IMG/VR virus record: IMGVR_UViG_3300037419_000702
Location: 1 to 52,928 of that record
Length of the DNA: 52,928 bases
Reading direction: 5' to 3' (one strand)
Source of the DNA: a virus
Lineage: Duplodnaviria > Caudoviricetes
Shown here one piece after another: positions 915-52,928 of this stretch. The position numbers and the translations under genes are program-made. Within the stretch, counting starts at the first letter, position 1. Each line of letters starts with the position of its first letter. The notes beneath the pieces were generated by a model that ran no database searches, was not told the origin of the DNA, and was given only the letters and a program-made list of their open reading frames with translations.

Positions 915-1129
915 GCGAGCAGGAGTTGATCACACAATGTTTCTACTATCTAAATTCCTTTAAACGACATAGAGCATTACAGCAAATTAAGGCACTTGAA
1001 GGAAACCGTACAGAAGCACAATATCATGAGTTGAAGCAGTATCAATTTATGGATTCATTAGAGTTAGGACTAAGAGCGATTCAGAAAAACCAAAGAAGTA
1101 TTGGGGAGGAAAACAATGATCGAGATTAG
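911..1129 (+). CDS. hypothetical protein
   Basis: AAGGAGGT RBS, coupled to both neighbours. Confidence 0.7.
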   Translation: MSEQELITQCFYYLNSFKRHRALQQIKALEGNRTEAQYHELKQYQFMDSLELGLRAIQKNQRSIGEENNDRD

Positions 1130-2135
1130 AGGAAGCGAAGCAAGTACATTTCAACGTTGTCGATTAAAGTGGAAATACCAATGGGCGGATGGACTGAAGC
1201 CTAAACGCCCGAATGGGAAGCTGTGGTTTGGTACTCTATTTCATAAATATTTAGAGGAGTTATATATCAAAGGAAGCCATTACGATGCTAATGAAGTGAT
1301 GCGAAAGCTATTTGAGGGAACAGATACATCTAGAATGGAACAAGTAGAGCTGGATGAAGTGTGGGATTTAGCTGATAAGGTATCAAAGAATTATTGGGAC
1401 AAATGGTGGAAGGAAAACACCAAGCAGCGAACGATTGCAACTGAATTAACTTTCCGTATTCCTTATGGGGATAACCTGATGTATTATGGAACCATTGACC
1501 GTATTTACTTAGATGAAGATGATCGGCTGTGGTTCACGGATTACAAAACGGTAGCTTCCATTGAGCAGTATGAGGATAATGCCGAAATGGATCGTCAGAT
1601 TAGCCGATACTGGTGGGCGTTGCAACAACTAATGCGAGGTAAAGGAGAAATATGGGGCAAGATTGAGGATTGGGTTGATCCGAAATGGGAATTACCTTTA
1701 GAAAAGGAAGTAGCCGGATTTGTTTACGATATTATCAAGAAGGATTACCCACATCCCCCGGAGGTCTTGAAGAAGGGTGGGCTATCCAAAGCCAAGAATC
1801 AGAAAACATCCTATGATCTATATCTTGGCAAGATTAGGGAACTAGGGCTGAATGTGGAAGATTATCAGGATATGCTTGATTTTCTAACTGATAAGCCGGA
1901 CGGGTTCTTCCGTAGGGTCCAAGTGTTCCGTACGCAGGGTGAAGTTGACGCTTCGATGGAGGAACTACTGCTGGTAGCTAAGGATATGGAGCAGCCTAGA
2001 ATCTACCGAAATATCACGAAAGACTGTTCATGGGATTGCGATTACAAAGGATTATGTGTCGCTTCAATGGATGGATCAAATGTCGATCTACTTATTAATC
2101 TAATGTACGACAAGGAGGATATTAAAAATGGCTAA
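1116..2135 (+). CDS. PD-(D/E)XK Cas4/RecB-like exonuclease
   Basis: GTLFH, GTIDRI..TDYKT, C-terminal C..C...C; likely start ATG 1116 after GGAGG. Confidence 0.85.
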   Translation: MIEIRGSEASTFQRCRLKWKYQWADGLKPKRPNGKLWFGTLFHKYLEELYIKGSHYDANEVMRKLFEGTDTSRMEQVELDEVWDLADKVSKNYWDKWWKENTKQRTIATELTFRIPYGDNLMYYGTIDRIYLDEDDRLWFTDYKTVASIEQYEDNAEMDRQISRYWWALQQLMRGKGEIWGKIEDWVDPKWELPLEKEVAGFVYDIIKKDYPHPPEVLKKGGLSKAKNQKTSYDLYLGKIRELGLNVEDYQDMLDFLTDKPDGFFRRVQVFRTQGEVDASMEELLLVAKDMEQPRIYRNITKDCSWDCDYKGLCVASMDGSNVDLLINLMYDKEDIKNG

Positions 2136-2928
2136 AACACTAGGAAAGAAAGCTGAGACAAAAGGGGAAGGACGTTCGATTGTCCTTTATGCCCCACCAT
2201 TTGCAGGGAAAACCACTTACCTAGCTGATCCTGAAGTAAAGGTATTACTAGCGGATATGGATCACAATACCTCTCCCCTAGATGACGCGGATAATGTAAC
2301 TATATTTCCGATTGATAGTTTTGAGGATTACCTAGAGTTCAAAACTTCGGTGCAGCGTGGTTATTTTCAAATTGATGGTGAAAAAATTCCCTGCAAGGAT
2401 TATGATGTAATTGCACTCGATTCATTCACTCGATTTGAGGAATTGATTAAAAAGTTCGTCGCTACCAAGTATGCCCCAAATCGTAAACGTGAGATTGAAG
2501 GGAAGTTTGGCGCACAGACTGATTGGGATGATCTTCAATCTAGGGAAGTAGCTGAAGTCAGAGAGTGGCAAGCGATGACCCGTTCTCAAGGGTTCAACGT
2601 TCTGTGGATCGGTCACGATATGGCTATCAATGATTCACTGACAGGTCAAGTGGCTAGAATCCAATTAGCCCTTCAAGGAAAATACGCTTCAGCCCGAATT
2701 ATGTCGGCTGTAGATGCGGTTATGTATCTCCATAAATACGAAGATAAGGACAAAACGATTAAGCGTGTTATCTACACACAAAACTTCGGAGCCGTTCAAG
2801 CTGATGCAAGATTGCCTGTGGAAAAACGTGCGAAACTTCCTTCAGCTTTACCGTTGGATAAGATGCCTTTATCAAAAGTGTTACCATACTTAGGGTACAA
2901 GAAAGTCGAAGCAATTGCTCAAAAATAG
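2128..2928 (+). CDS. Sak4-like AAA ATPase (single-strand annealing/recombination)
   Basis: Walker A YAPPFAGKTT, Walker B IALDS, WIGH; lies between exonuclease and SSB. Confidence 0.8.
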   Translation: MAKTLGKKAETKGEGRSIVLYAPPFAGKTTYLADPEVKVLLADMDHNTSPLDDADNVTIFPIDSFEDYLEFKTSVQRGYFQIDGEKIPCKDYDVIALDSFTRFEELIKKFVATKYAPNRKREIEGKFGAQTDWDDLQSREVAEVREWQAMTRSQGFNVLWIGHDMAINDSLTGQVARIQLALQGKYASARIMSAVDAVMYLHKYEDKDKTIKRVIYTQNFGAVQADARLPVEKRAKLPSALPLDKMPLSKVLPYLGYKKVEAIAQK

Positions 2929-2931
2929 TTG

Positions 2932-2972
2932 TTGACTGTCATGTGCTACGTGGTATATGATAAGCACATGAC
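2932..2972 (+). promoter_or_regulatory. promoter with heptad repeats and inverted repeat
   Basis: TTGACT 2932, TATGAT 2956; inverted repeat GTCATGTGCT / AGCACATGAC. Confidence 0.65.
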
Positions 2973-3012
2973 GGTTTTAATAAATTAAACCAAAACTAGG
3001 GAGGAAAATATT

Positions 3013-3483
3013 ATGTCATTCTTTAAACTTGATGAGTCTCAAACTGGTGGAGCATTCGAGCCAATGCCGATTGGTGAGTACGAAGCGATTATTACAGGAG
3101 CCGAAGTTATTAATTCTTCTAATGGAAACCCAATGATCAAGATTACCCTAACGGTTCGTGATGATGTGGATCAAGAAGGTAAAAAGCGTAAGGTATTCGA
3201 TAATGCGGTTGCTACCGAAAAAGCGATGTTCAAATTTCACCAGCTAGGAAAAGCGTTAGGAATCGAAGCGATGGCTACAATTGAAGGGTTTGCTCAAGCG
3301 ATGCTGTATAAGCCAATTCGATTCAAAAATAAGCATGAAGAGTACAATGGTAAAGTTAATGACAAGGTAAATTATTATTCTCCTGCTCAAGTAGATTATA
3401 ATGGGCAAGGCGGTCAGGTAACAGGCGATCCATTCGCTGGGTCCAGTACAGTTGATATCAGTGATGAAGACCTTCCCTTCTGA
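3013..3483 (+). CDS. single-stranded DNA-binding protein (DUF669-like)
   Basis: FEPMPIGEYEA N-terminus, acidic tail DISDEDLPF. Confidence 0.85.
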   Translation: MSFFKLDESQTGGAFEPMPIGEYEAIITGAEVINSSNGNPMIKITLTVRDDVDQEGKKRKVFDNAVATEKAMFKFHQLGKALGIEAMATIEGFAQAMLYKPIRFKNKHEEYNGKVNDKVNYYSPAQVDYNGQGGQVTGDPFAGSSTVDISDEDLPF

Positions 3484-7564: not shown

Positions 7565-9775
7565 ATGATTATAACGATAGCTAGGGAAGAATACACTGTT
7601 TTTTACACAGAAAGTGGTCTTGAAATAAATGAATCGATAGCTTTTGATAGACCTAAATTCTTAACTTACGATACTGAAACCACAGGTTTACACTTGAAAA
7701 AAGATAAACCTACACTCGGAGCAATTTGCTACGATCATAAGGTATTCGTATTTCCTACAACAAAAGATGTGTTAAAGTGGATGCCTGAATGGACTAAAAA
7801 AGTAAAAAGACTATATGGTCATAACATTGGATTTGATATGAACATGACAGCAAACGCTATGGAAGATGACAACTTTCCACTAAAACTGGGGAAAATCGGG
7901 GATACAATGGGGCTTTGTCGGCTTACTTTTGAAGCCATTTCCGTTCGTGACGGTGGAGACTCCCTCGCTTTAAAAGCAATTGCTCGTAAGTATATCGATA
8001 AAGAATCCGATCGATTTGAAAAAGCTGTGAAGGGTTGGCTTGAAGCGAAGAAAGCACAGAATCGAAAAGTTCTTATTGCTGTGCTGCATGGATTTAAAGA
8101 TGAAAAAGGGAAATGGTCTATCAAGCGTTTCGAATCGGCTTTAAATAAAGGGACCGAAGCGATCCCCTCAGATGTAATGGAAGCTTTCCAAAATTGGCAA
8201 GTCTGTTATCCTGATCCAACGTATGCCGATGTTCCCCAAGAAATCCTGTTACCTTACCTAGCTGTGGATGTGATTTTAACCAAGATACTTGTTTTGAAAT
8301 CCTTGCCAATTATCGTGCAGCGAAACCAAACCGGGATCATGGAAATGGAGTTTGATCTTATTCCTGTTGTGTATAAGATGGAACGGGCTGGGATTAAGGT
8401 AGACCGGGAATACCTCCAAGATTGCTACAAGAAAGTCGATGATTACATCCAAGATTTATACATCCAACTTCACGAATTATCAGGTATGGAGTTCCGAGTC
8501 GGTCAGCATAAGGTAGTCAATGATCTGCTGAACGGAATGATTGAATCAGATAAAAATGTTAAGACTGACAAACCAGGACTGAAGAAGATCGAAAAACTGA
8601 CTGAAAATGAAGTGGCGATTGAAATCGCTGAGATCGTGAGCCGTTTGCGTAGGCTGGAAAAATGGAAGTCAACCTACATTGAAAAAATCCTTGATGATTC
8701 AGAGTACGATGGACGATTCTATACACAAATGTCCCAGTTCAATCCCGTTTCCGGTCGGTTCAGTGGGGATGCCCAGCAATTCCCGAAAGACCCGATTTAT
8801 ACGAAAGAAGGTTATCAGTATGAGAAAGACCATCCGGGTAAAAAGGTTCCCGAAGAGTATATTCTCTATCATCCACGCAGAGCCTTTATCGGATTCTTCT
8901 ACTACCTCGACTATTCGCAAGTTGAACTTCGTGTACAAGGTCATTATACCTTATACTTCGGAGGGGATACCAATCTTCTTCGGGCATATATGCCCTATCG
9001 ATGTAAGCACTATAAGACTGGAACAATGTACGATTACGAAACAGTGGAAGGTCGTTGTAAATGGTCGGAATTAAGAGAGGGTGCGCCTACTGATCTTCAC
9101 TGGGAAAAGGCACTTGAAAAAGGTTGGTCTGTATGGGTGATTGAAGAAACTGGGGAAACATGGGTCCCAACAGACGTTCACTTGGCTACTACCTTAAAAG
9201 CCCTTGTCGCTATGGGATTCGATCCGGCAACAATGGACCCTAAAGATATCGCATGGTGGAGAAAGAAAGGGAAAACCTTCAACTTTATGCGGAACTATGG
9301 TGGTGGGGATGCGAAAGCTGCGGAGACATTGGATATCTCCCTAGATGCTGCAAGAGCGATGAACCAAGGTTATACGGATGCCTTTCCAATCGTTGTCACT
9401 TATCAGGAAGGAGTGATAAAGAAAGCTAGGGAAATGGGCTATGTGGAAAATCTTTCGGGTCGAAGATACTACTTGGCAAATTGGAACAAACATTACAAAT
9501 TAGCCAATTATCTGATCCAAGGTTCTTGTGCCGATGTGCTGAAGAAAAAGATGATTCAAATTGACCAGTTCCTTACAGAGAATAATTGTAAAACAAGAAT
9601 GGTCCTTTGTGTTCATGACGAACTTCAGTTTGAGGGAGTTGAAGGAGAAGAGTGGGTAATCGCTAAGTGTAAAGAAATCATGGAAGATACCCCGGATATC
9701 CTTGTTCCAATCGTAGCTGAAGCTGAGGTAACATATACCGATTGGGCGTCCAAAAAGTCGTTTCATGTTGCCTAG
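7565..9775 (+). CDS. polA: DNA polymerase, family A, with 3'-5' exonuclease
   Basis: YDTETTG, GHNIGFD, DYSQVELR, KTFNFMRNYG, IQGSCAD, VHDEL. Confidence 0.92.
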   Translation: MIITIAREEYTVFYTESGLEINESIAFDRPKFLTYDTETTGLHLKKDKPTLGAICYDHKVFVFPTTKDVLKWMPEWTKKVKRLYGHNIGFDMNMTANAMEDDNFPLKLGKIGDTMGLCRLTFEAISVRDGGDSLALKAIARKYIDKESDRFEKAVKGWLEAKKAQNRKVLIAVLHGFKDEKGKWSIKRFESALNKGTEAIPSDVMEAFQNWQVCYPDPTYADVPQEILLPYLAVDVILTKILVLKSLPIIVQRNQTGIMEMEFDLIPVVYKMERAGIKVDREYLQDCYKKVDDYIQDLYIQLHELSGMEFRVGQHKVVNDLLNGMIESDKNVKTDKPGLKKIEKLTENEVAIEIAEIVSRLRRLEKWKSTYIEKILDDSEYDGRFYTQMSQFNPVSGRFSGDAQQFPKDPIYTKEGYQYEKDHPGKKVPEEYILYHPRRAFIGFFYYLDYSQVELRVQGHYTLYFGGDTNLLRAYMPYRCKHYKTGTMYDYETVEGRCKWSELREGAPTDLHWEKALEKGWSVWVIEETGETWVPTDVHLATTLKALVAMGFDPATMDPKDIAWWRKKGKTFNFMRNYGGGDAKAAETLDISLDAARAMNQGYTDAFPIVVTYQEGVIKKAREMGYVENLSGRRYYLANWNKHYKLANYLIQGSCADVLKKKMIQIDQFLTENNCKTRMVLCVHDELQFEGVEGEEWVIAKCKEIMEDTPDILVPIVAEAEVTYTDWASKKSFHVA

Positions 9776-9805
9776 AAAATCAACAATCTATAAGGAGTGT
9801 AAAAA

Positions 9806-9904
9806 ATGCCGATCGATATTGGTCCGTGGATAAGCGGAGTAACCATTGGGTTATGTGTTGTTGCTTTTATTAGTTGGATTTACCACAAGTTGAAAAGTCA
9901 ATAA
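9806..9904 (+). CDS. small membrane protein (32 aa) flanked by 8-4-8 sites
   Basis: AAGGAG RBS; MPIDIGPWISGVTIGLCVVAFISWIYHKLKSQ, one hydrophobic helix. Confidence 0.6.
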   Translation: MPIDIGPWISGVTIGLCVVAFISWIYHKLKSQ

Positions 9905-10034
9905 AATCCAGAGTTTGTTGGATTCGACATACTTTTCGATAGTCAGCCTGTCCGAATTTTGGTAAAATGAGAGAAGGTCAATCCCTTGAAGATTGACCTT
10001 TTTAAACCACAATATTTAGAAAGAGGGAGAAATA

Positions 10035-12269: not shown

Positions 12270-12300
12270 GAAAAGGAGCCTATATAACGGCTCCTTTTTC
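12270..12300. terminator. bidirectional terminator
   Basis: AAAAGGAGCC-N9-GGCTCCTTTTT between convergent genes. Confidence 0.6.
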
Positions 12301-36166: not shown

Positions 36167-38689
36167 TTAATATCCAAAGCTTGTCCAATCTCGGTCTGCA
36201 AAGCGATCTTCCATTTCATCTGTCCAGTCATTCTCTTCATAAGACCTTGCTTCTGCCAACGACATTTTCTGTGGCGTATAGCTAGGGAGAGCCAACAGGT
36301 CGGGATTGTCCGGCAATCGCATAAATCCATAGCGACAATTATGAACCAATACTCCATTAGCATAGTATTCAGGTAAATCTTCAACAGACAGGTTATATAC
36401 TGTTTGTTTTTGGGCTTCTGTGGCTACGGACACCACATGAACGGGAACAATATCGTTTTTTGTCATATTTGTTAGACTGAAATATTGATCCACAATACTC
36501 GCATGTTTTTTCAACATCATCGAGTCCATTATCTCTTCGCCATTTAGACTTACAGCTATTGGAACAAAATCTGACTGTACCATGTGGTTTAGCCCTAAAT
36601 GGTTTCTTGCAACAATCACAGATAAAATCTTTTTCTTCCATGTTTCCAAAGACACTTTTTCCATGTTCTTTATGCCATTCATGACCCTCTTTTGATTTGT
36701 GCCAATTGAGAGTTTTTGGTCTGATTTTTTCCAAATGTTTTCTTCTTTTTGCAACAAAATATGGGTTGTAGTTTTGTTTGCTTGCATGGTATTCCAAGTG
36801 CCTTTTCGCTTCGACCAATTCGAGATTTTTGATATCATTGTTTGTGGTATCTTCATCCTTATGGTGAACATGAAATCCTTTAGGAATCTCTCCATGATGA
36901 TACGCCCATACTTCTCTATGAAGCCATTTATTATGGCATTTATAGTATCGCCTGTCGCTAAGATGTTTTGATTCGGGATACCTTCTCCACTTTTTATCGT
37001 TCCATTCGATAATATCGACTTTAACCATAGCGATCCCTCCCAATTAGGTGATACTTTAATTATATCACCGTATCTTAGGGAATCAACAGTACAGAATCCT
37101 TCTCCTTCCACAAAAATAGGGTGGTTTCCTGTTGCAGTTATTGAGCACCCATTTGAAAAATGAACAGTGTACACCGTAGCGTTTTTGTTCGTTATGCCCC
37201 AATCAATTACTTTCTTATAACCGTTACGAGTTAAAACGTAATCACCTGTTTTTATTTTCTCGATTGGGACCTGCCCATTAATTGTTTCAATTAATGTTCC
37301 TGCCACAAAACAAGAATCCATGGCGTGGTCATTTGCCTTAACAGGTTTCTCATCCAAGTTTTCGTTGGCTGAATCCATATCCAGTTCGGGGAATTTGTAG
37401 TGAATCCCCTCTTTCATCAGGTTCACGCACGTCCTATAAATCTTCCATTTGCCCCTCTCAATGTACGAGTTTACCCGTAATACCCCGGCTTCTATCGAAT
37501 TGTTCCCCGGACTAAAGAATAAATCGTATTCTTGATAGAGTGCTTGGACAGATTTACCGTTTACCGGGTCTGTCTTATTTTTGATAGATGGGTCGGCTAC
37601 CATAAACCGTAAGCGACCTCTAGGGATTTTGTCTATCTCCGGCTTGAGGGCTTTCGCATGTTCCGGGACCAGTGTATTTGGCTTATAGTACTCGTTGTAA
37701 GTAACGACTTCTGCTTTAATCGGGTCAATCGCATGGAAATACACAGCCGTAGGGTTACGTAAACCGTGGTCAAGAGTAACAAAACGCTCCCAATCCATAG
37801 GTATGCCATATTCGTCCGTCCTTCCTTTCAAAACTGGGTAAGGATCGATGAAGCAGTTCATGATCATCGGGTAAACCATGCCCTCTGAATGGTCGAACGA
37901 TCCTTCCAAATATCGCTTGATCCACCAATCCGGCTTTCCTTTACTGTTGATCTCGATGAAATCTTGCGGTAAATGCTTATTTAGTTTGGTAGCCCATATG
38001 AACGTATGCACATAAGGGTTGTAATCTTCATGTTCGGGGTGATTTTGGTCCTGCTTAGCTGGGTTATCAGCGAAAATTTCCTTAATCCACCCCAAGTCGG
38101 GGTTTGAACAGACCATGAAACACCGATTGCGAACGAAAGGGTCCCTCATACGAGTTAAAAGCTGGTCATAGATCGTCCGTTTGATACCGGAAGCTTCCTC
38201 CATATGGATAATCCCGGCATTGATGGACCTTAGTTTTTCCTCATCATCTGAGGGAATCGTGTAGAAAGTGAATCCATTGATTAATCGGATTTCTCCATCC
38301 GATTTATTGTAACCTTCAATAAGTGGAGGAGGGCAGACTTCGTTAAAAAAGGTTTTGATCGTTGTTCGTTTAAGCTGCTGTAAGGTCGGGGCGGTAAGCA
38401 ACCCAGTTCCATTCGGGTTTTCCAATGCTCGTATAAGAACTTCTGTAAGGCTTGATCTTGATTTACCACTACCATAACCTCCGAAAGCCCCGATAATCTG
38501 CATCTTCAGGGCGTATTCTCCTTTATCTTGATCCCAGTATTCTTCATAATCAACTGCGTGTAAGCCCTCTTGGTAATCCTGTGGTACGTAAGTCAGTTCG
38601 ATTGATCCACAGTTCGGACATTCTAGGTAGGACGGATGCTGATTCGATGGCTTTTGCATCTGTCCGATAAAACAGTTTTGGCATTCCAT
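36167..38689 (-). CDS. terL: terminase large subunit with intein
   Basis: GGYGSGKS, HMEEAS, SNP, LDHG, DHAMDS|intein|CRYG. Confidence 0.92.
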   Translation of the reverse strand: MECQNCFIGQMQKPSNQHPSYLECPNCGSIELTYVPQDYQEGLHAVDYEEYWDQDKGEYALKMQIIGAFGGYGSGKSRSSLTEVLIRALENPNGTGLLTAPTLQQLKRTTIKTFFNEVCPPPLIEGYNKSDGEIRLINGFTFYTIPSDDEEKLRSINAGIIHMEEASGIKRTIYDQLLTRMRDPFVRNRCFMVCSNPDLGWIKEIFADNPAKQDQNHPEHEDYNPYVHTFIWATKLNKHLPQDFIEINSKGKPDWWIKRYLEGSFDHSEGMVYPMIMNCFIDPYPVLKGRTDEYGIPMDWERFVTLDHGLRNPTAVYFHAIDPIKAEVVTYNEYYKPNTLVPEHAKALKPEIDKIPRGRLRFMVADPSIKNKTDPVNGKSVQALYQEYDLFFSPGNNSIEAGVLRVNSYIERGKWKIYRTCVNLMKEGIHYKFPELDMDSANENLDEKPVKANDHAMDSCFVAGTLIETINGQVPIEKIKTGDYVLTRNGYKKVIDWGITNKNATVYTVHFSNGCSITATGNHPIFVEGEGFCTVDSLRYGDIIKVSPNWEGSLWLKSILSNGTIKSGEGIPNQNILATGDTINAIINGFIEKYGRIIMERFLKDFMFTIRMKIPQTMISKISNWSKRKGTWNTMQANKTTTHILLQKEENIWKKSDQKLSIGTNQKRVMNGIKNMEKVSLETWKKKILSVIVARNHLGLNHMVQSDFVPIAVSLNGEEIMDSMMLKKHASIVDQYFSLTNMTKNDIVPVHVVSVATEAQKQTVYNLSVEDLPEYYANGVLVHNCRYGFMRLPDNPDLLALPSYTPQKMSLAEARSYEENDWTDEMEDRFADRDWTSFGY
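36338..37312 (-). mobile_element. intein (325 aa) in the terminase nuclease domain
   Basis: CFVAGTLI start, TGNHP block B, VYNLSV..YYANGVLVHN/C end. Confidence 0.92.
36393..37028 (-). CDS. HNH endonuclease with Zn-finger repeats, nested out of frame within the intein
   Basis: LHREVW..HVHHKDEDTTNNDIKNLEL; C..C-FCSNSC and C..C-YCSRSC; GGAGGG RBS 6 nt upstream of ATG 37028. Confidence 0.85.
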   Translation of the reverse strand: MVKVDIIEWNDKKWRRYPESKHLSDRRYYKCHNKWLHREVWAYHHGEIPKGFHVHHKDEDTTNNDIKNLELVEAKRHLEYHASKQNYNPYFVAKRRKHLEKIRPKTLNWHKSKEGHEWHKEHGKSVFGNMEEKDFICDCCKKPFRAKPHGTVRFCSNSCKSKWRRDNGLDDVEKTCEYCGSIFQSNKYDKKRYCSRSCGVRSHRSPKTNSI

Positions 38690-42312: not shown

Positions 42313-42515
42313 GTATTCACGCATCAGGATTATTTTGTATTCAAGGGACTCAATTTTTGGTCCACCGTATAGGGGATTGCATAATATATAGGTGGGCTAG
42401 GAAGCGGTGCGTTAAGGTATCGTTTTTCTAGGCTACTCCCCATTCCAAAAGATACCCCTACCCCTATACCTATGAGCAGGTAGGCAGCTTGTCGAAAAAT
42501 GTCGAACGAAAATTG

Positions 42516-42622
42516 TTTACTGGACGGGCAATAGGGTGATACTATTTAGGCAACGGCAGGGAATACGGTATCAAAAAATAAATTGATAAGGTATCGACAA
42601 CCGGGAAATACCATGATACAAT
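42516..42622 (+). promoter_or_regulatory. tandem sigmaA-type promoters
   Basis: TTTACT-18-TACTAT (42516-42545) and TCGACA-17-TACAAT (42594-42622), both with extended TG and A-rich upstream tracts. Confidence 0.65.
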
Positions 42623-42628
42623 AAAGAC

Positions 42629-43272
42629 AGTTAAGAGATAAGGCGAGGTGATACGGCAACCTTAGGGTGTTTAGTCGGTCGGTTGGCTCTCTCCTAACTC
42701 AAGTAATACACTATCAAAAAGCGACCCTCCAAACAGCAAGACGGCAATAAGCCCACGGGTGATAGCGTGGCAGTAAGCCCAGTTCCCTCCTATCAAAGGC
42801 AGTAGAGTACCCAATGTATTACACTATCTAATTTTAATTCGATTAAGTAAGAAACCGCAGGACCAAAGGGATAAAGACCATTATCGAACGATAATCTAAG
42901 CGCGGTCCAATAGCTAGGTATGCCTAGAACTAGGGAATCAGTACGGGCTGAAAACGGGAGAGAAGCGACCTAACCTTTGCAATCGAATATTCCGGGGATC
43001 GTGACCCCATTATCAAAGCAAATCCGGGTAAAGACAATAACCCGGTCTATAAGCGAGGGCAGTCGGCTCGCTAGACGGTCGAAGATCGTTTCTAAGGGCA
43101 GTTCGCTGTACACCCTTCCTAGCATACTGGGAAGGTGATTTGAAAGGCGAGAAGGGCTATGAGACGGTCTGAGACGGTCGTAAGTTTTACCTTCCATCAA
43201 GTCCTTGACGGACGAACAAAAACTGGGGAGACAATGAAAAAATAAGCCCTCACGGGCTTGATGGATGGTAAA
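42629..43272 (+). ncRNA. candidate large structured ncRNA
   Basis: No credible ORF, many nested helices, G-U pairs favour the + strand, promoters upstream. Confidence 0.6.
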
Positions 43273-43448: not shown

Positions 43449-43478
43449 TTGACTTTTTAAAAAATACACTGTTATAAT
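43449..43478 (+). promoter_or_regulatory. sigmaA promoter inside an inverted repeat
   Basis: TTGACT-18-TATAAT with TG. Confidence 0.65.
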
Positions 43479-44412: not shown

Positions 44413-44441
44413 TTGACATGCCATATGTCATGTGTTATGAT
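44413..44441 (+). promoter_or_regulatory. sigmaA promoter with heptads
   Basis: TTGACA-17-TATGAT; CATGCCA TATGTCA TGTGTTA. Confidence 0.75.
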
Positions 44442-44859: not shown

Positions 44860-46707
44860 ATGTGCAGAGAAAACAAAGGTATGAGCGCAAACATTTTAAG
44901 TGAAAAGGAGTCTATGGATGTTTTAAGAGAAGAGTACCGGGAACACGCTGCCGACTGTTGTCCGTCTATTCCCAGCTTTGCCCAGCGTGTCGCTACATTC
45001 GATGAGATTGTAGGAGTATATCCTGTCATTCATGATCGTACAGAAAAAATAAGAGAGAGTATTCACAAATTGATTGATTTCTGTCGCTATAATAAAACTC
45101 AAGAAAGATTGACCTATCAAATGACTGATTTTTTGAGATGGAATTTACTTGAAAGAATCGGTCAAGAAGATTTTATGAACAACACGATTCCTAAAAACTT
45201 ATTCGATCAGTTGAAAGATGAAATCAAAAAACAAGAAAACATGGATAATTTTTATTTAGACGAAAAAGTGTTCGAATTAATTAAAAAATCAAGTCCAAAA
45301 CTATCTAATTTGATTCTTTCCCTAGCTAAATTCTATGAACCAAACGAGGACCCAAATAATAATCAAGTGGTCAAAGATTACAATGATCGCGGATCAAATA
45401 AAAATAACGAAATGGAAATGGTTATTAGTACGGAACCGCACCGCATTGCCGGGATGAGTGCCTTTGGCAAGTTCACTAGTTGTCAAGATTGGGTCCGTAA
45501 ACATCAAGGGCATGAGTATCACGATTACACTCATCAAGTATGGGCGAATTTGAAGGATGAAACATGCGGAATTATCTTCATTCGTCATACTGACGAAGAG
45601 TATGAAGTAGAGGATATGTACGCTCGTTCCCTCATTCGTGTGCTGGAATTGGAAAACGGTCATAAAGTATTCTACATTCATAAAATCTATGCAATTGCTC
45701 CGTATGATAAGTACCTTCAGGATTCAATCGAAGCATGGGTGAAAACTTTGCCCGAAAACTACCATGCGATACTTATGTATAAACACGATCGTTCTACTTA
45801 TGAAGGAATGAAAAACAAGCACGGCAAAACCTTTAAGTCGTCTTTTACTTCCGTCACTCATGAGCAAGATGCGTTAGTATGCTATGGAGAAGAGCGTCAA
45901 GAATGTGATTGCTGCGAGGGGAGTGGAACGGTTACTCAAGAGTATGAAAACGAAGTGGAAAGAGATTGTTGGTCTTGTGATGGATCGGGCTATATATGGG
46001 ATGATGATTTAGAGGAAAATGTAATGTGTCATAATTGCGATGGAGACGGGTACACCGTCGAAACAGAATGGCAAGAGGAAGAAGTAGATTGCGAAAACTG
46101 CGATGGATCAGGCTATGTACTAGATGATGAAAGAGAATACAGCCCATACAATGACCATACAAATTTCCTAGATTTAGAGTCCTATAAAGGAATCAAATTC
46201 CAAGTCCCCACAGCGATTTTAAAATGGGATGAAGAGGAAGAACCAACTAAACCAATCGACCGCCCAACCCCAACAGGAATATATCAAGTAGGAGATCGTG
46301 TCAAGCTTCGTGATGGATTGATAGTCGGTCAAATGTACGGTGGGATAATTATGTACGATGGAATGATGAACTACATGCATAAAGTTATGGAAATAAAATT
46401 GACTTCAACAGAAGGTGGGACTACTTACTATGGCTGTGGGTATTGGTATTCAGCCGAAATGCTGGAACCAGCCCCCATTCAAGAGGGAGACTATGTCCGA
46501 ATCCGTCACGATCTAGTGGTCGGTCAGATGTACAACGGCTTAACTTTCCAAGAAGCCATGAAACATAATCAAATTGTAAAGGTATTGAGAAAAGACAGTA
46601 ATGACACATTCAAAGTATATCATCCTCGAATAGATTGGTTATATTATGGAGTCGATATGCTTCAACCAGTGGCACAAAACGCTCGACAACTAAGGGAGGT
46701 TGTATAA
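44860..46707 (+). CDS. multidomain protein with DnaJ-type zinc finger and two C-terminal repeats
   Basis: Four CxxCxGxG motifs; repeats GDRVKLRDGLIVGQMY and GDYVRIRHDLVVGQMY. Confidence 0.75.
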   Translation: MCRENKGMSANILSEKESMDVLREEYREHAADCCPSIPSFAQRVATFDEIVGVYPVIHDRTEKIRESIHKLIDFCRYNKTQERLTYQMTDFLRWNLLERIGQEDFMNNTIPKNLFDQLKDEIKKQENMDNFYLDEKVFELIKKSSPKLSNLILSLAKFYEPNEDPNNNQVVKDYNDRGSNKNNEMEMVISTEPHRIAGMSAFGKFTSCQDWVRKHQGHEYHDYTHQVWANLKDETCGIIFIRHTDEEYEVEDMYARSLIRVLELENGHKVFYIHKIYAIAPYDKYLQDSIEAWVKTLPENYHAILMYKHDRSTYEGMKNKHGKTFKSSFTSVTHEQDALVCYGEERQECDCCEGSGTVTQEYENEVERDCWSCDGSGYIWDDDLEENVMCHNCDGDGYTVETEWQEEEVDCENCDGSGYVLDDEREYSPYNDHTNFLDLESYKGIKFQVPTAILKWDEEEEPTKPIDRPTPTGIYQVGDRVKLRDGLIVGQMYGGIIMYDGMMNYMHKVMEIKLTSTEGGTTYYGCGYWYSAEMLEPAPIQEGDYVRIRHDLVVGQMYNGLTFQEAMKHNQIVKVLRKDSNDTFKVYHPRIDWLYYGVDMLQPVAQNARQLREVV

Positions 46708-46708
46708 T

Positions 46709-47668
46709 ATGAAGAAACTAACGAAGCAATTATTCAAGCTACTACGTCTACATAGTCCAAGTGGGAAGGAATGGGCGGTCGCTCGTTACCTTCTCCCCAT
46801 TCTTCGAGATACGATGGACATTGTGACGGTCGATTCTCATTGGAATATTCTAGCAGAAAAGAAATATGGGCAGGATGATTACACCGTTTTACTATCGGCA
46901 CATATGGACACGGTAGCAAGTCATCCTCCCGTACCGAAATGGAGGAACAATAAGACTGAAATCTATAACATGGCAGGAAATGGAGCATTAGGAGGAGACG
47001 ATAAATGTGGTATCGCTGCACATTTGGCAGTTATTCGGGAAATGAACCGAGGAACTCAATTCACAGGAACATTAAAAGTCTGTTTTTCAAGAGAAGAAGA
47101 AATTGGATGTGTGGGGGCTTCAAAAGCAGTAAAATTAAATCCTGAATGGTTCGAAGGAATAAACGCTTGTATCGTGGTAGACCGAAAAGGATCGGACAAT
47201 ATCGTAGAATCATGTGGTAGCTGGGAAAGATTTTGTTCTCCCGAATATAGTGAGTTTTGGGCTGATATGGCTACCAAAACGGGATTTATGGGGATTATTC
47301 AGGATGGATCAATCAGCGATACGATGATTTTTAGTGAACTAGGGATAAATGGAGTCAATCTATCGGCTGGTTATTACCATGCCCATACAAGGGATGAGTA
47401 CATCCGTATCGATGAGTTGAAACGGACGGTACGATGGATTTTAAATGGTTTGGATGAAATCCAATCCCATCAATTCCCTAGTTTTGACTACGAAATGGCA
47501 ATGGCAAATAAATCATGGGGAGGATGGACTTGGAGTTTAAAGGACGATTCAACAATGATCGAATGCGATTGTTGTCTCGTTCAATTCCCTATCGAGCAAA
47601 TGTTTGACTATCATGGGCATGATGTTTGCTATAACTGTATAAACGATATTAAAGAAGGGACGATCTAA
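46709..47668 (+). CDS. M20/M28-family metallopeptidase
   Basis: SPSGKE, SAHMDTV, GGDDKCG, EEIGCVG, SD, YHAHT. Confidence 0.85.
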   Translation: MKKLTKQLFKLLRLHSPSGKEWAVARYLLPILRDTMDIVTVDSHWNILAEKKYGQDDYTVLLSAHMDTVASHPPVPKWRNNKTEIYNMAGNGALGGDDKCGIAAHLAVIREMNRGTQFTGTLKVCFSREEEIGCVGASKAVKLNPEWFEGINACIVVDRKGSDNIVESCGSWERFCSPEYSEFWADMATKTGFMGIIQDGSISDTMIFSELGINGVNLSAGYYHAHTRDEYIRIDELKRTVRWILNGLDEIQSHQFPSFDYEMAMANKSWGGWTWSLKDDSTMIECDCCLVQFPIEQMFDYHGHDVCYNCINDIKEGTI

Positions 47669-47671
47669 CCA

Positions 47672-47788
47672 ATGACTAAATTCGACCTATTCATGATCTC
47701 AGTCCTAGCCCCCATAGGTGCAGCCGTTTTCTTGGCTGTACTCTATGGAATGATGGTCCTAGCTGAGTTCGCCCGGTCATTCCAATAA
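47672..47788 (+). CDS. small membrane protein (38 aa)
   Basis: Hydrophobic ORF whose stop lies in an 8-4-8 site. Confidence 0.5.
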   Translation: MTKFDLFMISVLAPIGAAVFLAVLYGMMVLAEFARSFQ

Positions 47789-47827
47789 AATCGCCATTTT
47801 ATTCTGTTTTAGAGAGGGGACGAAGTA

Positions 47828-48172
47828 ATGTTGAAAGCCTTCTACACATACGATCCGGATCATGAACATTGTGAGATTGTTTTTGCAGGAAATCGAAATT
47901 TAGCAAGACAAAGTTGTGAAGCAAGAGATTGGTGCGACTATATAGATATAGGTGCAAGAAGATTACCACATTTCGATAAGTATGCAGAACAAGGGTATGT
48001 CCCTAAAGAAGAATTGCTTAAAGATGGTTGGTGGTTTGAGTGCATGGTACATCATTTCAGAGAGCAATTAAATAACAATAAATTATACTGCACGAAACAT
48101 GTTTATGAAGAAGATGCAGTTATTATCGAAGATAAAGTCATTTGCAAAGAGTGTGCAGAAAAGCTTCGGTAA
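47828..48172 (+). CDS. hypothetical protein (cassette)
   Basis: GAGGGG RBS; GWWFEC..CKEC; flanked by 8-4-8 sites. Confidence 0.7.
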   Translation: MLKAFYTYDPDHEHCEIVFAGNRNLARQSCEARDWCDYIDIGARRLPHFDKYAEQGYVPKEELLKDGWWFECMVHHFREQLNNNKLYCTKHVYEEDAVIIEDKVICKECAEKLR

Positions 48173-48199
48173 AATCAACATTTGATTGGAGTTGAAGTT

Positions 48200-48337
48200 T
48201 TGATAACTGTATATTGTGGTTGGTGCAACAATACATTTATAGGCAAAAAAGAGGATTTCAAAATTTTAATCCACGAACTTGACGGTGAGTGTGTAGAGTG
48301 TCCGAATTGCAAAGGACATTCTGAAATATTTCGATAA
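48200..48337 (+). CDS. small zinc-ribbon protein (45 aa, cassette)
   Basis: GGAG RBS, TTG start, CGWC..CPNC; flanked by 8-4-8 sites. Confidence 0.55.
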   Translation: MITVYCGWCNNTFIGKKEDFKILIHELDGECVECPNCKGHSEIFR

Positions 48338-48376
48338 ATTCAACATTTTCTCGGCTTTTGAAAGGGGAGAGGTATA

Positions 48377-48862
48377 TTGAGTAAATATAATTACTTGTCA
48401 ACTGGAGAGAATGAACATCCTACTCCACAATGGCTATTTGACAAGATAAACGACATGTTTAATTTTGAAATTGATTTATCCGCAACTAGTGAAAATGCTA
48501 AATGTGAAAAGTTCTATACAAAAGAACAAGACGCATTGAAATATGAATGGGATAACACTTCATGTTGGTGTAATCCCCCATATTCAAAAGATTTACAGCC
48601 TTTATTTATCCAAAAGGCGTACACAGACAGTCTTAAATATAAAAATACAATTGTTTTACTTATTCCTTTACGAGCAGATACAAGAGTTTGGCATGATTAT
48701 ATTTGGGGTAAAGCAGATGTTTATATCTTTAAAGGCAGACCTAAATTCTATGGTGATAAGAGTCCGACATATGCGAGTGCTTTAGTTGTGTACAGTGATT
48801 CTGAACACAAAAATATTTATACGGTTGATAAGGATTTTGAAGCAATAAAACAAATTGCTTAA
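48377..48862 (+). CDS. phage DNA N6-adenine methyltransferase (cassette)
   Basis: TPQWLF, D..A...NAKC, WCNPPYS, LIPLRADT. Confidence 0.88.
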   Translation: MSKYNYLSTGENEHPTPQWLFDKINDMFNFEIDLSATSENAKCEKFYTKEQDALKYEWDNTSCWCNPPYSKDLQPLFIQKAYTDSLKYKNTIVLLIPLRADTRVWHDYIWGKADVYIFKGRPKFYGDKSPTYASALVVYSDSEHKNIYTVDKDFEAIKQIA

Positions 48863-48942
48863 ACCTGAACAAATCCAGATTTGCTTCGATTTTATGTAAA
48901 AACCAAAACAGGCGAGTATTCCATCGAAAGGGGATTTGCGAT

Positions 48943-49077
48943 ATGAAAGAAGAACCATGCGATTATTGTGGAGGTGACGGATGGATCGATCAAGGGGATG
49001 GATCAGAAAAGATGTGTAAATACTGCCGGGGAACCGGGATAGAAACAAAGGAGGATGAATGGCAATGGCAAAGATAG
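48943..49077 (+). CDS. small DnaJ-type zinc-finger protein (44 aa)
   Basis: AAAGGGG RBS; CDYCGGDG..CKYCRGTG. Confidence 0.6.
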   Translation: MKEEPCDYCGGDGWIDQGDGSEKMCKYCRGTGIETKEDEWQWQR

Positions 49078-49298
49078 CTACGAACGTTTCACTAACTACA
49101 GCTAAAAACATCGGGTTGAATGCTTCGAATCATACTCTTTCAGACGGTACACCTTATGTCATGCTTAGTTTAATGAATTTTTCTATTACGATTTGTGCGT
49201 CAACCGATCAAGCCGAACAAATAGCCAAGGCACTATTATCTCAAGTGCAGCAAATACAAGAACAACAAATGGAGGAAACAACAAATGAAATCGAATAG
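49059..49298 (+). CDS. hypothetical protein
   Basis: AAGGAGG RBS. Confidence 0.65.
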   Translation: MAMAKIATNVSLTTAKNIGLNASNHTLSDGTPYVMLSLMNFSITICASTDQAEQIAKALLSQVQQIQEQQMEETTNEIE

Positions 49299-49722
49299 CA
49301 GCAAACGAGGATTCGAAGTTTTAGTAAAGGAAGATTCAGTAATCAATTATTTTCCAAAACGAGGTACCATGCAAAGTGCAGGGTATGACTTAATCTCAAG
49401 AGATAAAGCCGTTATTCATCCGGGTCAAACCGTACTACTAAGAACAGGTGTAACAGCTTTTATGTTGCCCGATGAATGGTTGCATTTAAAAAGTCGGTCA
49501 GGATTGTCTCTTAAAAAAGGAATTATTGTAGGAGCAGGAGTTATCGATGCAGATTATTACCCTAATGAGATTGGAGTAGTTATTCATAATTTTGGAAATG
49601 AATCTTTTGAGGTAAATACTGGGGATCGTGTAGCTAACGCTATTTTCAGTAAGTATTTACTAGCGGATAAAGATAACGCTGATACAGAAAGAACTTCAGG
49701 ATTCGGTCATACAGGAGTTTGA
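49285..49722 (+). CDS. dut: trimeric dUTPase
   Basis: SAGYDL, SRSGL, GVIDADY, GDRVAN, RTSGFGHTG. Confidence 0.93.
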   Translation: MKSNSSKRGFEVLVKEDSVINYFPKRGTMQSAGYDLISRDKAVIHPGQTVLLRTGVTAFMLPDEWLHLKSRSGLSLKKGIIVGAGVIDADYYPNEIGVVIHNFGNESFEVNTGDRVANAIFSKYLLADKDNADTERTSGFGHTGV

Positions 49723-49859
49723 TTTTTCTTGAATACAATCCTTCACTTGTGTTAAACTACATATACAGGTGAAGGGTGTATGCTCGAAAGTATTTATAAA
49801 ATACTTTGGAGGATGCAGTCAACAATGTAGCCTAATCCGCATACATTAAACTAAAGGAG

Positions 49860-50426
49860 TTGAAATATATGTCACAGCTAGGAAAAGTATGTAACGCTTG
49901 TGGTAGAGAACGTAGTAAAACGAAAGCCTTGGTTTACGATCCTGAAACGTTAATGCCATATTGTGAGTTTCCTCATATCTGTAATACGAACCACCCGAAC
50001 AGCGTACCTAATCTACTAAAACGTGGGGCAGAACTGGTGATGATCAACCAAACCGAAGCCCAGCGACTATTCAAGGAACATTTAATCAAGACAATCGGCA
50101 ATACAGATAAGATCGCTAAGATTCGAAATATGGTAGATAAGCCTATGACGATTCGGATAGGCAGCCCGGACTTGGCTATATTCTTAATCGAATTGCAGGA
50201 ACAATACCACTTCAGTTCTTTATCGGATACGATCCGTTACTGCATTCAGGTAATGAAAGAGAATCAAGGTGAATACTACTCGGACTACAAAAAGATGGAG
50301 GAAACTAGGGAAGAAGTGAAGCAGGAGAAAGCCCTTGTCGAGTCTATCGAAGATAGTAAACCTTTGGAGGAAAAGCCGAAAGAGGAAGTCAAGGAGCCTG
50401 AGCAAGAAGAAGTATGGGATTTTTAG
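49860..50426 (+). CDS. putative regulator: Cys/His N-terminus + ribbon-helix-helix-like segment
   Basis: MTIRI..LAIFLIELQEQYHFSSLSDTIRYCI. Confidence 0.5.
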   Translation: MKYMSQLGKVCNACGRERSKTKALVYDPETLMPYCEFPHICNTNHPNSVPNLLKRGAELVMINQTEAQRLFKEHLIKTIGNTDKIAKIRNMVDKPMTIRIGSPDLAIFLIELQEQYHFSSLSDTIRYCIQVMKENQGEYYSDYKKMEETREEVKQEKALVESIEDSKPLEEKPKEEVKEPEQEEVWDF

Positions 50427-50438
50427 GAGGAATGAAGG

Positions 50439-51170
50439 ATGGCAACAATTAACCTAAAAACCGATGACAAACCGCATCTATCTGCACTAATGAAGTCCAA
50501 CCCAAAACTAGCGAAAGAAGTGATTGAAACATTCGTTAGTTGTATGGAGGAAGCATGTAACCCGGAATCAGGAATGATGTGGGCTGAATTGCCGGGTAAG
50601 TTTTCGGATCAGTTATCATTTCGTGATTTGATTCTCGGAATCTTAAAAGGTAGCTTGGATTTAAAAGAATTGAATCCTGAAGCCTTTGATGCAATTAAAG
50701 AGGAAGTCCACCCTCTATCCATGCTTATGCCGCGTAAAGATTGGTTAAATGGAGGAATGAGAAGGTATGAGTGGAGAAATCACTTCCGATTGCCGAAAGA
50801 TGCCCAAATCAACCAAGATACCGTTTCGGATATTTTTAGGAAGCTGCTTCGCTATTATAAATATGTGAAGGTTGACGACTTAGCCTATGCGATGATCAAC
50901 AACCAAATCAAAACCTTCGAGGGGCTAGGGGAACGGAATGTAGCGATGCTGCCGTTCGTCCCAGCTTTACGCTACCAACAAAAACACTTCGGGGATTTGC
51001 ATGTTGGAAAGTTCTTTGATGATATCGGGGCTTTGGATTGTGGGGAGATAGGTACTGAAGTAGAATGTCCTTCCTGCCAAACCCCGTACAATGAATTGTG
51101 GTATCTTGGAGAACATATAATCTGCCCTAGCTGTAATGCTGGATTCAAGGTAAAGGAGGAACGTCAATGA
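50439..51170 (+). CDS. hypothetical protein with C-terminal zinc ribbon
   Basis: CPSC..CPSC. Confidence 0.7.
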   Translation: MATINLKTDDKPHLSALMKSNPKLAKEVIETFVSCMEEACNPESGMMWAELPGKFSDQLSFRDLILGILKGSLDLKELNPEAFDAIKEEVHPLSMLMPRKDWLNGGMRRYEWRNHFRLPKDAQINQDTVSDIFRKLLRYYKYVKVDDLAYAMINNQIKTFEGLGERNVAMLPFVPALRYQQKHFGDLHVGKFFDDIGALDCGEIGTEVECPSCQTPYNELWYLGEHIICPSCNAGFKVKEERQ

Positions 51171-51499
51171 CCGAGCAGGAGAAACAATTTACTGATTATT
51201 GGATTCAACAAACGGTATCCGAACGCAAAGAAAATAAACGGTTAAAATCGTTGCTGGATGAACGTGATAAAGAAGTGGAAGGCTGGAAAAAACACGCTAC
51301 TGATTTTGAAGAAATGTATAAGCAGGAGCATAGAGAGAAGAATGCGTTAAAACGTGAACTAGAAAGATTAAAAGAAGTAAACCAACATCTAAGAAAGGCA
51401 TTGAATGATCTTAAATATGGACTAGAATATGGTGTAGCGAATGCTTCAAGCTGTATAAAAATTATTGACGAAGCCCTAACAGGGGAGGAATCTAAATAG
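51167..51499 (+). CDS. coiled-coil hypothetical protein
   Basis: AAGGAGG RBS, ATGA overlap. Confidence 0.7.
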   Translation: MTEQEKQFTDYWIQQTVSERKENKRLKSLLDERDKEVEGWKKHATDFEEMYKQEHREKNALKRELERLKEVNQHLRKALNDLKYGLEYGVANASSCIKIIDEALTGEESK

Positions 51500-51598
51500 A
51501 TTGGTACTATTTCGACCAAATTATTACACTTGTTACGGTTTCTTTTTCTATAGGATACTGGTTAGGAAGGAGAAATAAAAATCCTTCCTAAATTCTCA

Positions 51599-51628
51599 TT
51601 GTATATGTCATGTGATATGTGGTATACT
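51599..51628 (+). promoter_or_regulatory. promoter with heptads
   Basis: TTGTAT-18-TATACT; TATGTCA TGTGATA TGTGGTA. Confidence 0.65.
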
Positions 51629-51650
51629 GTAAGCAAATAACTAAGGAGGT

Positions 51651-51852: not shown

Positions 51853-52928
51853 ATGCAAGTCAAAGTCACCAATGACCACATTTATGTAAAAACACCCTAT
51901 CATGAAAAGGATTTTGTGAAGGACGTAATGAACGGGACTTGGAGCAAGGCGGAAGGTATGTACCGTTTTCCTAAAAATATCCATACTTTGACGGAACTTG
52001 CCCGGAAATTCCCCAGTTTGATGCAAAATACCCAATTCATGAATGAAGGGACAAAGTTAAAGGCAGCTAGGAATTTTTTCTTAGAGTTAAAACAAACGAA
52101 TATCATCCTAGATGATCGGCTTCGCCCGTACCAAAATACGGATGTGAATTACCTAAAGAAACTCCCGGCTGCTGGAATTTTTAATGAGCCTAGAACTGGG
52201 AAAACACCTACATCCATTATTTTGATGAAGGAACTAAAGACCAAAAGGAACCTTGTTATTTGCCCGGCATCCCTTATTTGGAACTGGAAGAAGGAGTTTG
52301 AACAATGGTATCCTGAGTGTAAAGTAAATGTCTTTATCTCAAAAAGAAAACCAAAACTTCCTGAATGTATGGGATTTCTGCCTGTAAATGAACCTAATGT
52401 GGTGATTGTAAGTAAAGATACGTTAAAAACAAATATTAACTATTTTGAAGGAGATTCAGTACGATGGGACACTTGTTTTGTAGATGAAGCACATTTCCTA
52501 CGAAATCGGGATACCGCCCAATCGAAAGCTGTGTATGCCATTAAAGCGGATCGACGGTATGCCCTGACAGGAACCCCAACTGTGAAGCATGGAACGGATA
52601 TATTCGGTATTCTAAAATTCCTTTATCCCAAGAAGTTTTCCTCGTATTGGCAATTCATCGAACGATACTGGGAAATGGGTCAGGATTGGATGGGTCATGC
52701 TGAGGTCAAGGATATCAAGCCCAATCGTAAAGCTGAATTGCAGGAATTAATTGGGTTTATATCAGTCCAACGCAAACGAAAAGATGTGATGAAGTGGCTG
52801 CCGGATAAGCAAAGACAAACCTTCTATTGTAAGATGGAGGGTAAGCAGCTTACACATTATACCGAAATGCTTGAGGATTTTATGACCGACGATGGGGAAT
52901 TGGATGCCCCAAATGTTCTCACCCAGTT
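51853..52928 (+). CDS. SNF2-like helicase, N-terminal part (about 537 aa when joined with 1-665)
   Basis: LRPYQ, NEPRTGKT, VICPASL..NW, VDEAH, LTGTP; runs off the window end. Confidence 0.9.
   Translation, partial: MQVKVTNDHIYVKTPYHEKDFVKDVMNGTWSKAEGMYRFPKNIHTLTELARKFPSLMQNTQFMNEGTKLKAARNFFLELKQTNIILDDRLRPYQNTDVNYLKKLPAAGIFNEPRTGKTPTSIILMKELKTKRNLVICPASLIWNWKKEFEQWYPECKVNVFISKRKPKLPECMGFLPVNEPNVVIVSKDTLKTNINYFEGDSVRWDTCFVDEAHFLRNRDTAQSKAVYAIKADRRYALTGTPTVKHGTDIFGILKFLYPKKFSSYWQFIERYWEMGQDWMGHAEVKDIKPNRKAELQELIGFISVQRKRKDVMKWLPDKQRQTFYCKMEGKQLTHYTEMLEDFMTDDGELDAPNVLTQ

Follow-up and report, generated by a model that had tools for sequence, protein, structure and literature searches.

The gain and loss of small accessory genes by virulent phages (e.g., methyltransferases and anti-defence candidates), which leaves neighboring genes unharmed, is still mostly explained as illegitimate recombination plus selection. 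In integron arrays, promoterless small genes are each followed by an imperfect inverted repeat near the stop codon; the attC site of these systems is a long imperfect inverted repeat of about 55–140 nucleotides (nt) with conserved GTTRRRY/RYYYAAC core sites. Among phages, the best-described alternative to illegitimate recombination plus selection is offered by the promoter-early stem-loop (PeSL) cassettes of T4-type phages (Arbiol et al. 2010, PMC2839356; Comeau et al. 2014, PMC4122927). PeSLs are elements of about 100 bp that run from a stop codon to a ribosome-binding site (RBS) and combine a strong promoter with a stem-loop (PMC2839356). They lie beside orphan genes in hyperplastic regions, undergo homologous recombination and give rise to mini-circles (PMC2839356; PMC4122927), and the PeSL authors themselves compared them with integrons (PMC2839356). 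Here, we describe a short motif at the ends of small genes in an uncultured soil phage, the IMG/VR virus record IMGVR_UViG_3300037419_000702, which is rated complete and was analyzed as a whole (52,928 bases with 127-base end repeats; hereafter, the window). We put at roughly 0.5 the probability that this motif is a gene-oriented linker marking the joints in a variable stretch of accessory genes, which are exchanged by general recombination.

Reading every gene end in the orientation of its gene, we found the common element to be an oriented motif, roughly TCSRATAAAATCAAC-ATTT, with an information content of 10.3 bits in its left arm, 4.9 bits in the core and 7.7 bits in the right arm. In four small genes (stops at 9904, 47788, 48172 and 48337; Table 1), the TAA occupies a fixed position of the motif. 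The relationship of these gene ends is recovered independently of any consensus: when 63 gene ends are aligned at the stop codon and all 1953 pairs are compared in register from the stop to +20, the mean identity is 7.65 of 23 positions (standard deviation 2.17), and all six pairs formed by the four genes score 15–17 and fall within the top eight of the 1953, the remaining two being the tail genes that converge on each other (score 19) and a pair with no relation to the motif genes (score 15). This in-register test upholds a claim of the preliminary description of this DNA, namely that short related sites, each containing the upstream stop, stand between successive small accessory genes, and the stops of the 38-, 114- and 45/51-amino acid (aa) open reading frames (ORFs) indeed lie inside the left arm, with an RBS after each. 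With leave-one-out matrices trained on seven sites, the left-out site ranks 7–10 for seven of the eight gene-end sites and 18 for the site at 48867. All eight are placed −1 to +8 nt from a sense-orientation stop codon, and the motif is asymmetric, since the reverse-complement matrix scores much lower. The top non-RBS 8-mer after stops is AAAATCAA, 4 of whose 10 genome occurrences are in that position (p = 1.7e-5), and the four occurrences of AAAATCAA[CT] are all found directly after a stop and in gene orientation.

The preliminary description had assembled ten 20-mers into one family of 8-4-8 palindromes with the consensus RATAAAAT-N4-ATTTTATY. All ten are present at their coordinates with the letters as given, and they are not a single family: the part of the proposal that survives is the oriented motif at the four gene ends above. 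Mismatches to the palindromic consensus number zero at 47784 and 25856, two at 48168, 48333, 9900 and 22845, three at 24167, four at 48867 and five at 9773 and 24108. Palindromy is complete (8/8 Watson–Crick arm pairs) at only one of the eight gene-end sites, 47784, the seven others showing 3–6 of 8 pairs. With up to two mismatches allowed, the window holds six matches versus 0.56 and 0.40 expected from order-1 and order-3 Markov sequences, and six or more are reached in 0/200 sequences of either order; this enrichment is circular because the consensus was derived from these very sites, and it does not extend to looser thresholds (see below). The cores that had appeared to come in matched sets are conserved letters of the motif, products of hairpin symmetry or shared DKIG codons.

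The stretch between the peptidase gene and the gene for a 188-aa protein is variable. The comparison was made with one relative, L002, whose peptidase is 55% identical and which was retrieved with an alignment of 15 peptidase proteins. That search returned L002 and six distant matches from viral contigs, and the same L002 contig from metagenome contigs; a helicase-alignment search returned L002 and a 20% match, with a 28% match in genome contigs, and a search with the single peptidase found no viral locus. L002 keeps the flanking genes and carries three other ORFs in the intervening stretch, sharing 0/7 of the window genes there; it is too distant for break points to be placed on it. Homologues of the 114-aa protein are 27.9–40.9% identical and those of the methyltransferase 41.7–46.3% among the records listed, and all matching records stay below 60%.

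A closer view of this variation comes from Logan contigs of four runs (X4–X7), placed on positions 45500–51500 at 80% likeness. All of these data are assembled contigs, and depth gaps in X4, X6 and X7 carry no weight, as these runs were partly read and filtered. In X5, the reference is split into contigs 46739–48345, 48316–48896 and 48867–51500, whose 30-nt overlaps are the signature of graph branches. A further X5 contig (depth 3.71 versus 7.9 for the reference path) connects 48345 to 48867, skipping the methyltransferase gene, and an X4 contig likewise starts at 48867. The first of these positions is inside site 3, just past CAACA, and site 4 begins at the second. Because the two sites do not align in register at this joint and have no letters in common there, we read it as a replacement and not as the product of site-by-site excision. 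The cassette-joint idea of the preliminary description is partly supported by the stop-embedded sites between accessory genes, the variable region and the 48345-to-48867 path; the integron-like mechanism is not supported. A 271-nt X4 contig also contains the 39-nt element at site 1 (47779–47817), with 226 letters of unlike sequence behind it; before 47779, the same divergent letters are seen in X4, X5 and X6, and contigs of other depth in the same three runs carry a 22–24-nt site-1-like word upstream of a match to 51153–51187. A 363-nt X6 contig on 48170–48345 with 187 further letters of ambiguous side has a depth of 2.9 and is given little weight. Circle-type (back-joining) joints are not listed in the contigs of the four runs, which by their nature drop rare circles and deletions. 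These branches, seen at one locus in assembled contigs with short flanks, make a thin fit to a portable conserved joint. In IMG/VR, the exact 20-mer of site 1 occurs in three contigs, none of which has flanks in common with the window, and a 19-nt degenerate word common to 9773 and 24108 occurs in 10 contigs, roughly the chance number by an uncomputed estimate.

Two other variants were seen in the same runs. At 45951–46125, a contig of X4 and X5 skips 173 nt in the CxxCxGxG-repeat part of the gene for a 615-aa protein, which looks like a repeat-number polymorphism. About 35 nt at 51153–51189, comprising the RBS and first codons of a 110-aa gene, resemble window positions 896–925; each of the four runs has many further contigs with this stretch, in which the sequence on either side of it differs.

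In the reading that we favor, the four sites at 47.8–48.9 kb and the one at 9900 are copies of a linker of about 20 nt that includes the TAA of the upstream small gene and has the RBS of the next gene after it. These copies stand at the joints of the variable stretch of a virulent-type phage, which is bounded by the M20/M28 peptidase gene on one side and the conserved 188-aa gene on the other. They would act as module ends that are conserved, in the manner of phage linkers or PeSL-type boundaries. In related phages, small genes of different kinds would then end in the same few letters, and such patches of identity would be the points of replacement, most likely by the general recombination of the phage (a Sak4-type annealing protein, an SSB-like DUF669 protein and a PD-(D/E)XK nuclease) or by local duplication. 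We infer that exchange occurs within the motif and is driven by homologous recombination. A candidate engine for such short-homology exchange is predicted in the window itself, where genes for a PD-(D/E)XK nuclease (1116–2135; 4.9e-19), an AAA_24 protein (PF13479; 2128–2928; 1e-17) and, beside the latter, an SSB-like DUF669 protein (3013–3483; 1.5e-16) were recognized from their domains. PMC8093625 identifies PF13479 as the Sak4 family of annealing proteins and DUF669 as an SSB-like partner that often adjoins the Sak4 gene, and states that annealing proteins work on short diverged homology. A six-frame search of the window for the Phage_integrase, Resolvase, Recombinase, rve and Y1_Tnp domains gave 0 matches at E ≤ 1, with the PF00589 control positive in all 14 genomes in which it was run. 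As far as these five families go, the earlier claim that no recombinase is encoded holds.

Like the PeSLs, the motif occupies intergenic positions beside small orphan genes in a variable region (seven genes absent from L002), and in both cases a linker role is suggested without a dedicated recombinase. Whereas a PeSL spans about 100 bp and comprises a stable stem-loop terminator as well as a strong promoter of the sigma-70 type, here about 20 nt are conserved, with no promoter- or terminator-like match in the motif and with hairpins that are mostly unstable; the host type of the phage is Firmicutes-like, in contrast to the Gram-negative hosts of PeSL phages. No strong sigma-70-type promoter was found at the motif sites, nor a stable terminator or attenuator stem-loop, with just 48168 and 48867 folding better than shuffles. 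As both the promoter and the stem-loop are missing, the motif may be PeSL-like in its working and is not a PeSL member. With the integron attC/IntI system, it shares an array of small genes with an inverted repeat-like site close to the stop; it differs in the absence of an IntI-type tyrosine recombinase (PF00589, 0 matches at E ≤ 1 in the window), in sites of 20 nt, in genes that have their own RBS and in its location in a lytic-type phage. The GTTRRRY/RYYYAAC words, of which the whole window holds 48 + 40, come within 30 nt of three of the ten named sites (at 48338; 9873 and 9917; 25897) and have no fixed position relative to them. Membership among the integrons fails on account of the recombinase, the site length and the core words, and in comparative terms the motif at the cassette joints is probably PeSL-like and not integron-like. 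A shorter linker with a built-in stop codon and without promoter or terminator, in a Firmicutes-type soil phage, would widen the PeSL picture, and the methyltransferase segment, already polymorphic in one sample, provides a concrete joint for testing. On present evidence, this is not a new class of mobile-element machinery.

A number of results weigh against the linker reading. An expression role was not found for the motif, which is neither promoter-like nor terminator-like, and of the four local hairpins, three fold no more stably than shuffled sequence. The statistics are moderate: the enrichment of AAAATCAA after stops fails Bonferroni correction (1.1), and the 19-nt match between sites 2 and 3, taken by itself, does not exceed chance on the scale of the genome (76% of shuffles). 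The matrix scan is favorable in its eight-site leave-one-out form and unfavorable when the matrix is built from three core sites, which barely finds other members: only 24183(−) and 25859 are recovered slightly above background, and 9776 ranks 16th. Allowing up to three, four and five mismatches to the palindromic consensus gives 8, 27 and 147 window matches versus 5.1/4.1, 34.9/29.7 and 175.7/157.1 expected (order-1/order-3), so that 24167, 48867, 9773 and 24108, 4/10 of the named sites, are indistinguishable from background as palindrome sites. The motif was not found at the L002 gene ends of the matching region, and many small genes without it are also missing from L002, so variability is not specific to motif-flanked genes. 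The alternative X5 contig has only 30 letters on its shorter side, and by a coordinate-based estimate from intergenic lengths the two X5 break points would fall in sites by chance about once in ten; mosaic joints at gene boundaries are in any case usual in phages. Some of these results would also be expected if no system existed at all, with sites 2 and 3 arising by local duplication of a gene end and the rest by AT-rich stop contexts (TAAAAT) and post hoc selection. This would fit the 42-nt repeat over sites 2 and 3, which takes in coding sequence (the similarity reaches 26 nt back into both coding regions, and from −27 to +12 the ends at 48172 and 48337 share 30/42 positions, the top of the 1953 pairs, with a mean of 13.18 and standard deviation of 2.98), the borderline pairwise intergenic matches (e.g., 9771–9796 versus 24106–24131, 22/26 identical, a score that tops 6.7% of 150 shuffles) and the abundance of exact 13-mer repeats (66 inverted pairs versus about 38 in shuffles, and 87 direct pairs). 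Nevertheless, we think it unlikely, because the placement of 6/6 pairs of the four gene ends in the top 8/1953 is improbable by chance, one of these genes is 38 kb away, and further contigs show the site-1 element next to different neighbors. The 114- and 51-aa proteins give no BLASTP alignment and are not paralogues, which excludes whole-gene duplication as the source of sites 2 and 3.

Retention of the site-1 element over 39 nt in another context, including its core and RBS region, suggests selection on the sequence and could also be read as the mark of a primarily cis-regulatory motif, i.e., a binding site for a dimeric protein or an RNA element at cistron ends (acting in stability, processing or RBS coupling), with which the joints coincide merely by being intergenic. 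PMC2839356 presents the PeSLs themselves as regulatory elements, two perfect 8-4-8 palindromes (47784 and 25856) occur where 0 are expected, and the hairpins at 48168 (−9.5 kcal/mol; z −2.56) and 48867 (−6.8 kcal/mol; z −2.41) fold better than shuffles; those at 47784 (−2.6 kcal/mol; z +0.21), 48333 (−2.1; +0.32) and 9773 (−2.3; +0.32), however, fold no better. The right half-site is poorly conserved and the full palindrome is found at 1/8 gene-end sites, a poor fit to a dimer operator. Moreover, promoter-like + strand sites are absent between 46710 and 48624, as are terminator-like sites from 47.7–48.9 kb, including the four sites there, the window has 0 Rfam families, and no candidate regulator is tied to the motif; we consider this alternative clearly less likely than the linker reading. 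We rejected a promoter reading, given the lack of promoter-like matches at the sites and a region around 9900, where TAAAAT counts as the −10 element in two 9/12 matches, with 39 such matches versus 48.8 in shuffles; a reading as RNA structure was rejected in view of folding that is inconsistent across sites. The integron-like site-specific exchange proposed in the preliminary description, with sites that would also move receptor-binding modules, draws on stops inside sites, site–gene–site arrays and a methyltransferase segment that is polymorphic between two sites; as no recombinase is encoded in cis, it would need one supplied in trans by a host or co-resident element. We found no support for it and consider it highly improbable: the sites are 20 nt long, oriented with the genes and mostly non-palindromic, a core word of the integron type does not occur at them consistently, the X5 joint does not keep register and has 0 common letters, and the sites in the tail genes turn out to be coding sequence or the arms of a hairpin, to which may be added that circle-type joints are not listed, though contigs could not show them. 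A dedicated recombination joint bound by a specific phage or host protein outside the known recombinase families also appears quite improbable. Were it true, Dam methyltransferase and like genes would move as motif-bounded cassettes among co-occurring soil phages, and the element beside other genes in metagenomes would be a trace of such traffic.

Table 1. Motif sites, repeats and associated genes in the window.
Feature	Position	Strand	Description
Site 1	47784..47803	+	Sole perfect 8-4-8 palindrome at a gene end; includes TAA 47786–47788 of the 38-aa ORF
Site 2	48168..48187	+	Oriented motif including TAA 48170–48172 of the 114-aa ORF; 5/8 arm pairs
Site 3	48333..48352	+	Oriented motif including TAA 48335–48337 of the 45/51-aa Zn-ribbon ORF
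Site 4	48867..48886	+	Weak member, 5 nt past the methyltransferase stop; small hairpin followed by T's
9900 site	9900..9919	+	Motif including TAA 9902–9904 of the ORF after polA; in register with sites 1–3
9773 site	9773..9792	+	Weak member at the polA TAG
Direct repeat	48142..48183 with 48307–48348	+	42 nt, 74%; spans sites 2 and 3
38-aa ORF	47672..47788	+	Predicted hydrophobic membrane peptide; no family
114-aa ORF	47828..48172	+	phrog_8514, family of unknown function
CxxC...CxxC ORF, 45/51 aa	48182..48337 (start 48182 or 48200)	+	No family; low coding score
161-aa methyltransferase	48377..48862	+	Predicted Dam-family N6-adenine DNA methyltransferase (PF05869, 3.2e-25)
ORF ending at 9904		+	Predicted 32-aa membrane peptide, downstream of polA
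Homologous recombination module	1116..3483	+	Predicted PD-(D/E)XK nuclease, AAA_24 (Sak4-family annealing protein) and DUF669 (SSB-like)
Imperfect palindrome	24102..24192	both	91-nt hairpin between convergent tail genes; outer arms are 24108 and 24167
In-gene match	22845..22864	+	Codons 27–32 (DKIGNL) of a 445-aa gene; no gene end
In-gene perfect 8-4-8 palindrome	25856..25875	−	Codons 235–240 (DKIGIL) of a 795-aa beta-helix depolymerase-like gene

Of the two sites that the preliminary description placed after polA, the 9900 site is in register with sites 1–3 and the 9773 site is a weak member of matrix rank 16. After the 32-aa ORF, a TG-extended TAAAAT promoter-like site (9940–9968) is immediately followed on the + strand by a 12-pair hairpin (9974–10000) and then T's; the scan assigns this hairpin to the − strand.

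The inclusion of the tailspike sites in the family did not hold up. The 24108 and 24167 sites are arms of one hairpin, their CAAT/ATTG cores reflecting its symmetry, and the 22845 and 25856 sites are coding sequence, with a common 13-mer (22845–22857) that encodes DKIG in both frames and is at chance level. The sequence of 24102–24192 folds at −37.6/−38.7 kcal/mol (z −8.35/−9.45), a value equaled in 0/200 shuffles, and it is probably a bidirectional terminator or 3′ stabilizer. As in bidirectional intrinsic terminators, either strand folds into a single long hairpin whose inner stem is followed by U-runs; unlike in these, its outer 19-nt arms start exactly at both stops and resemble the linker motif, and the hairpin is absent from the list of a simple terminator scan. 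Serine-invertase switches pair a gene for the invertase with recombination sites in inverted orientation that measure at least about 26 bp. The Gin/Cin/Hin invertible tail-fiber segments (Mu, P1) have a parallel here in two convergent tail genes between a 13-nt inverted repeat that is in frame in both; they differ in that no serine recombinase is encoded here and in that the second tail gene has its own start and upstream promoter-like sequence. We rejected an invertible segment of this type, with 0 matches to PF00239 and PF07508 in the window and a repeat of 13 nt that has 65 other such pairs beside it in the genome. Apart from the common 13-mer, the tail proteins show no relationship, their best local match being 10/14 (E = 0.014).

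The window further encodes polA, a ribonucleotide reductase, a primase/helicase and the PD-(D/E)XK, AAA_24 and DUF669 proteins among its replication and recombination genes, an intein-containing terminase for packaging, a capsid protein, and an amidase, a beta-helix depolymerase-like tail protein and three HNH endonucleases. Its closest cultured matches are Tsamsa-like Bacillus phages, the similarity being restricted to a part of the peptidase gene (a 135-nt match in a phage collection). Eight soil/rhizosphere sequencing runs contain the window stretch in whole or in part, with no RNA dataset among the runs listed, and the window has no tRNAs. The 127-nt direct terminal repeat (1–127 and 52802–52928) falls inside a helicase gene (51853–52928 + 128–665), whose frame, joined across the ends, gives a single 538-aa protein with one terminal stop, and the L002 homologue also has 538 aa; because of this joined frame, the repeat looks like a circular-assembly overlap and not like physical genome ends.

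Several minor features were noted elsewhere. The terminase large subunit gene (36167–38689) carries the intein (Intein_splicing, Hint_2), and a 216-aa ORF (36393–37043) overlaps it in another frame. Within the + strand arm, a counter-oriented gene pair on the − strand (12280–13984; overlap of about 240 nt) codes for a protein with a Replic_Relax domain and for an FtsK/SpoIIIE-like ATPase, whose E value of 6.2e-5 only narrowly passes the cut-off. About 0.9 kb (42330–43260), with an HNH gene on one side and a region of divergent promoters on the other, is without a convincing ORF, relatively GC-rich and without Rfam families or tRNAs, and may be a large non-coding RNA. A 24-nt inverted repeat (43395–43418/43502–43525; 92% complementary) flanks the strongest promoter-like site of the right arm (43449–43478; 11/12 with TG) and looks like paired operators. 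Finally, a repeated word, TGTCATGTG...GGTATA, is present in several promoter-like regions (695–722, 2937–2972, 44423–44439 and 51599–51641), and no other non-self match between intergenic regions scores as high as 2937 versus 51606, which at 36.3 bits exceeds the top score of every shuffle.

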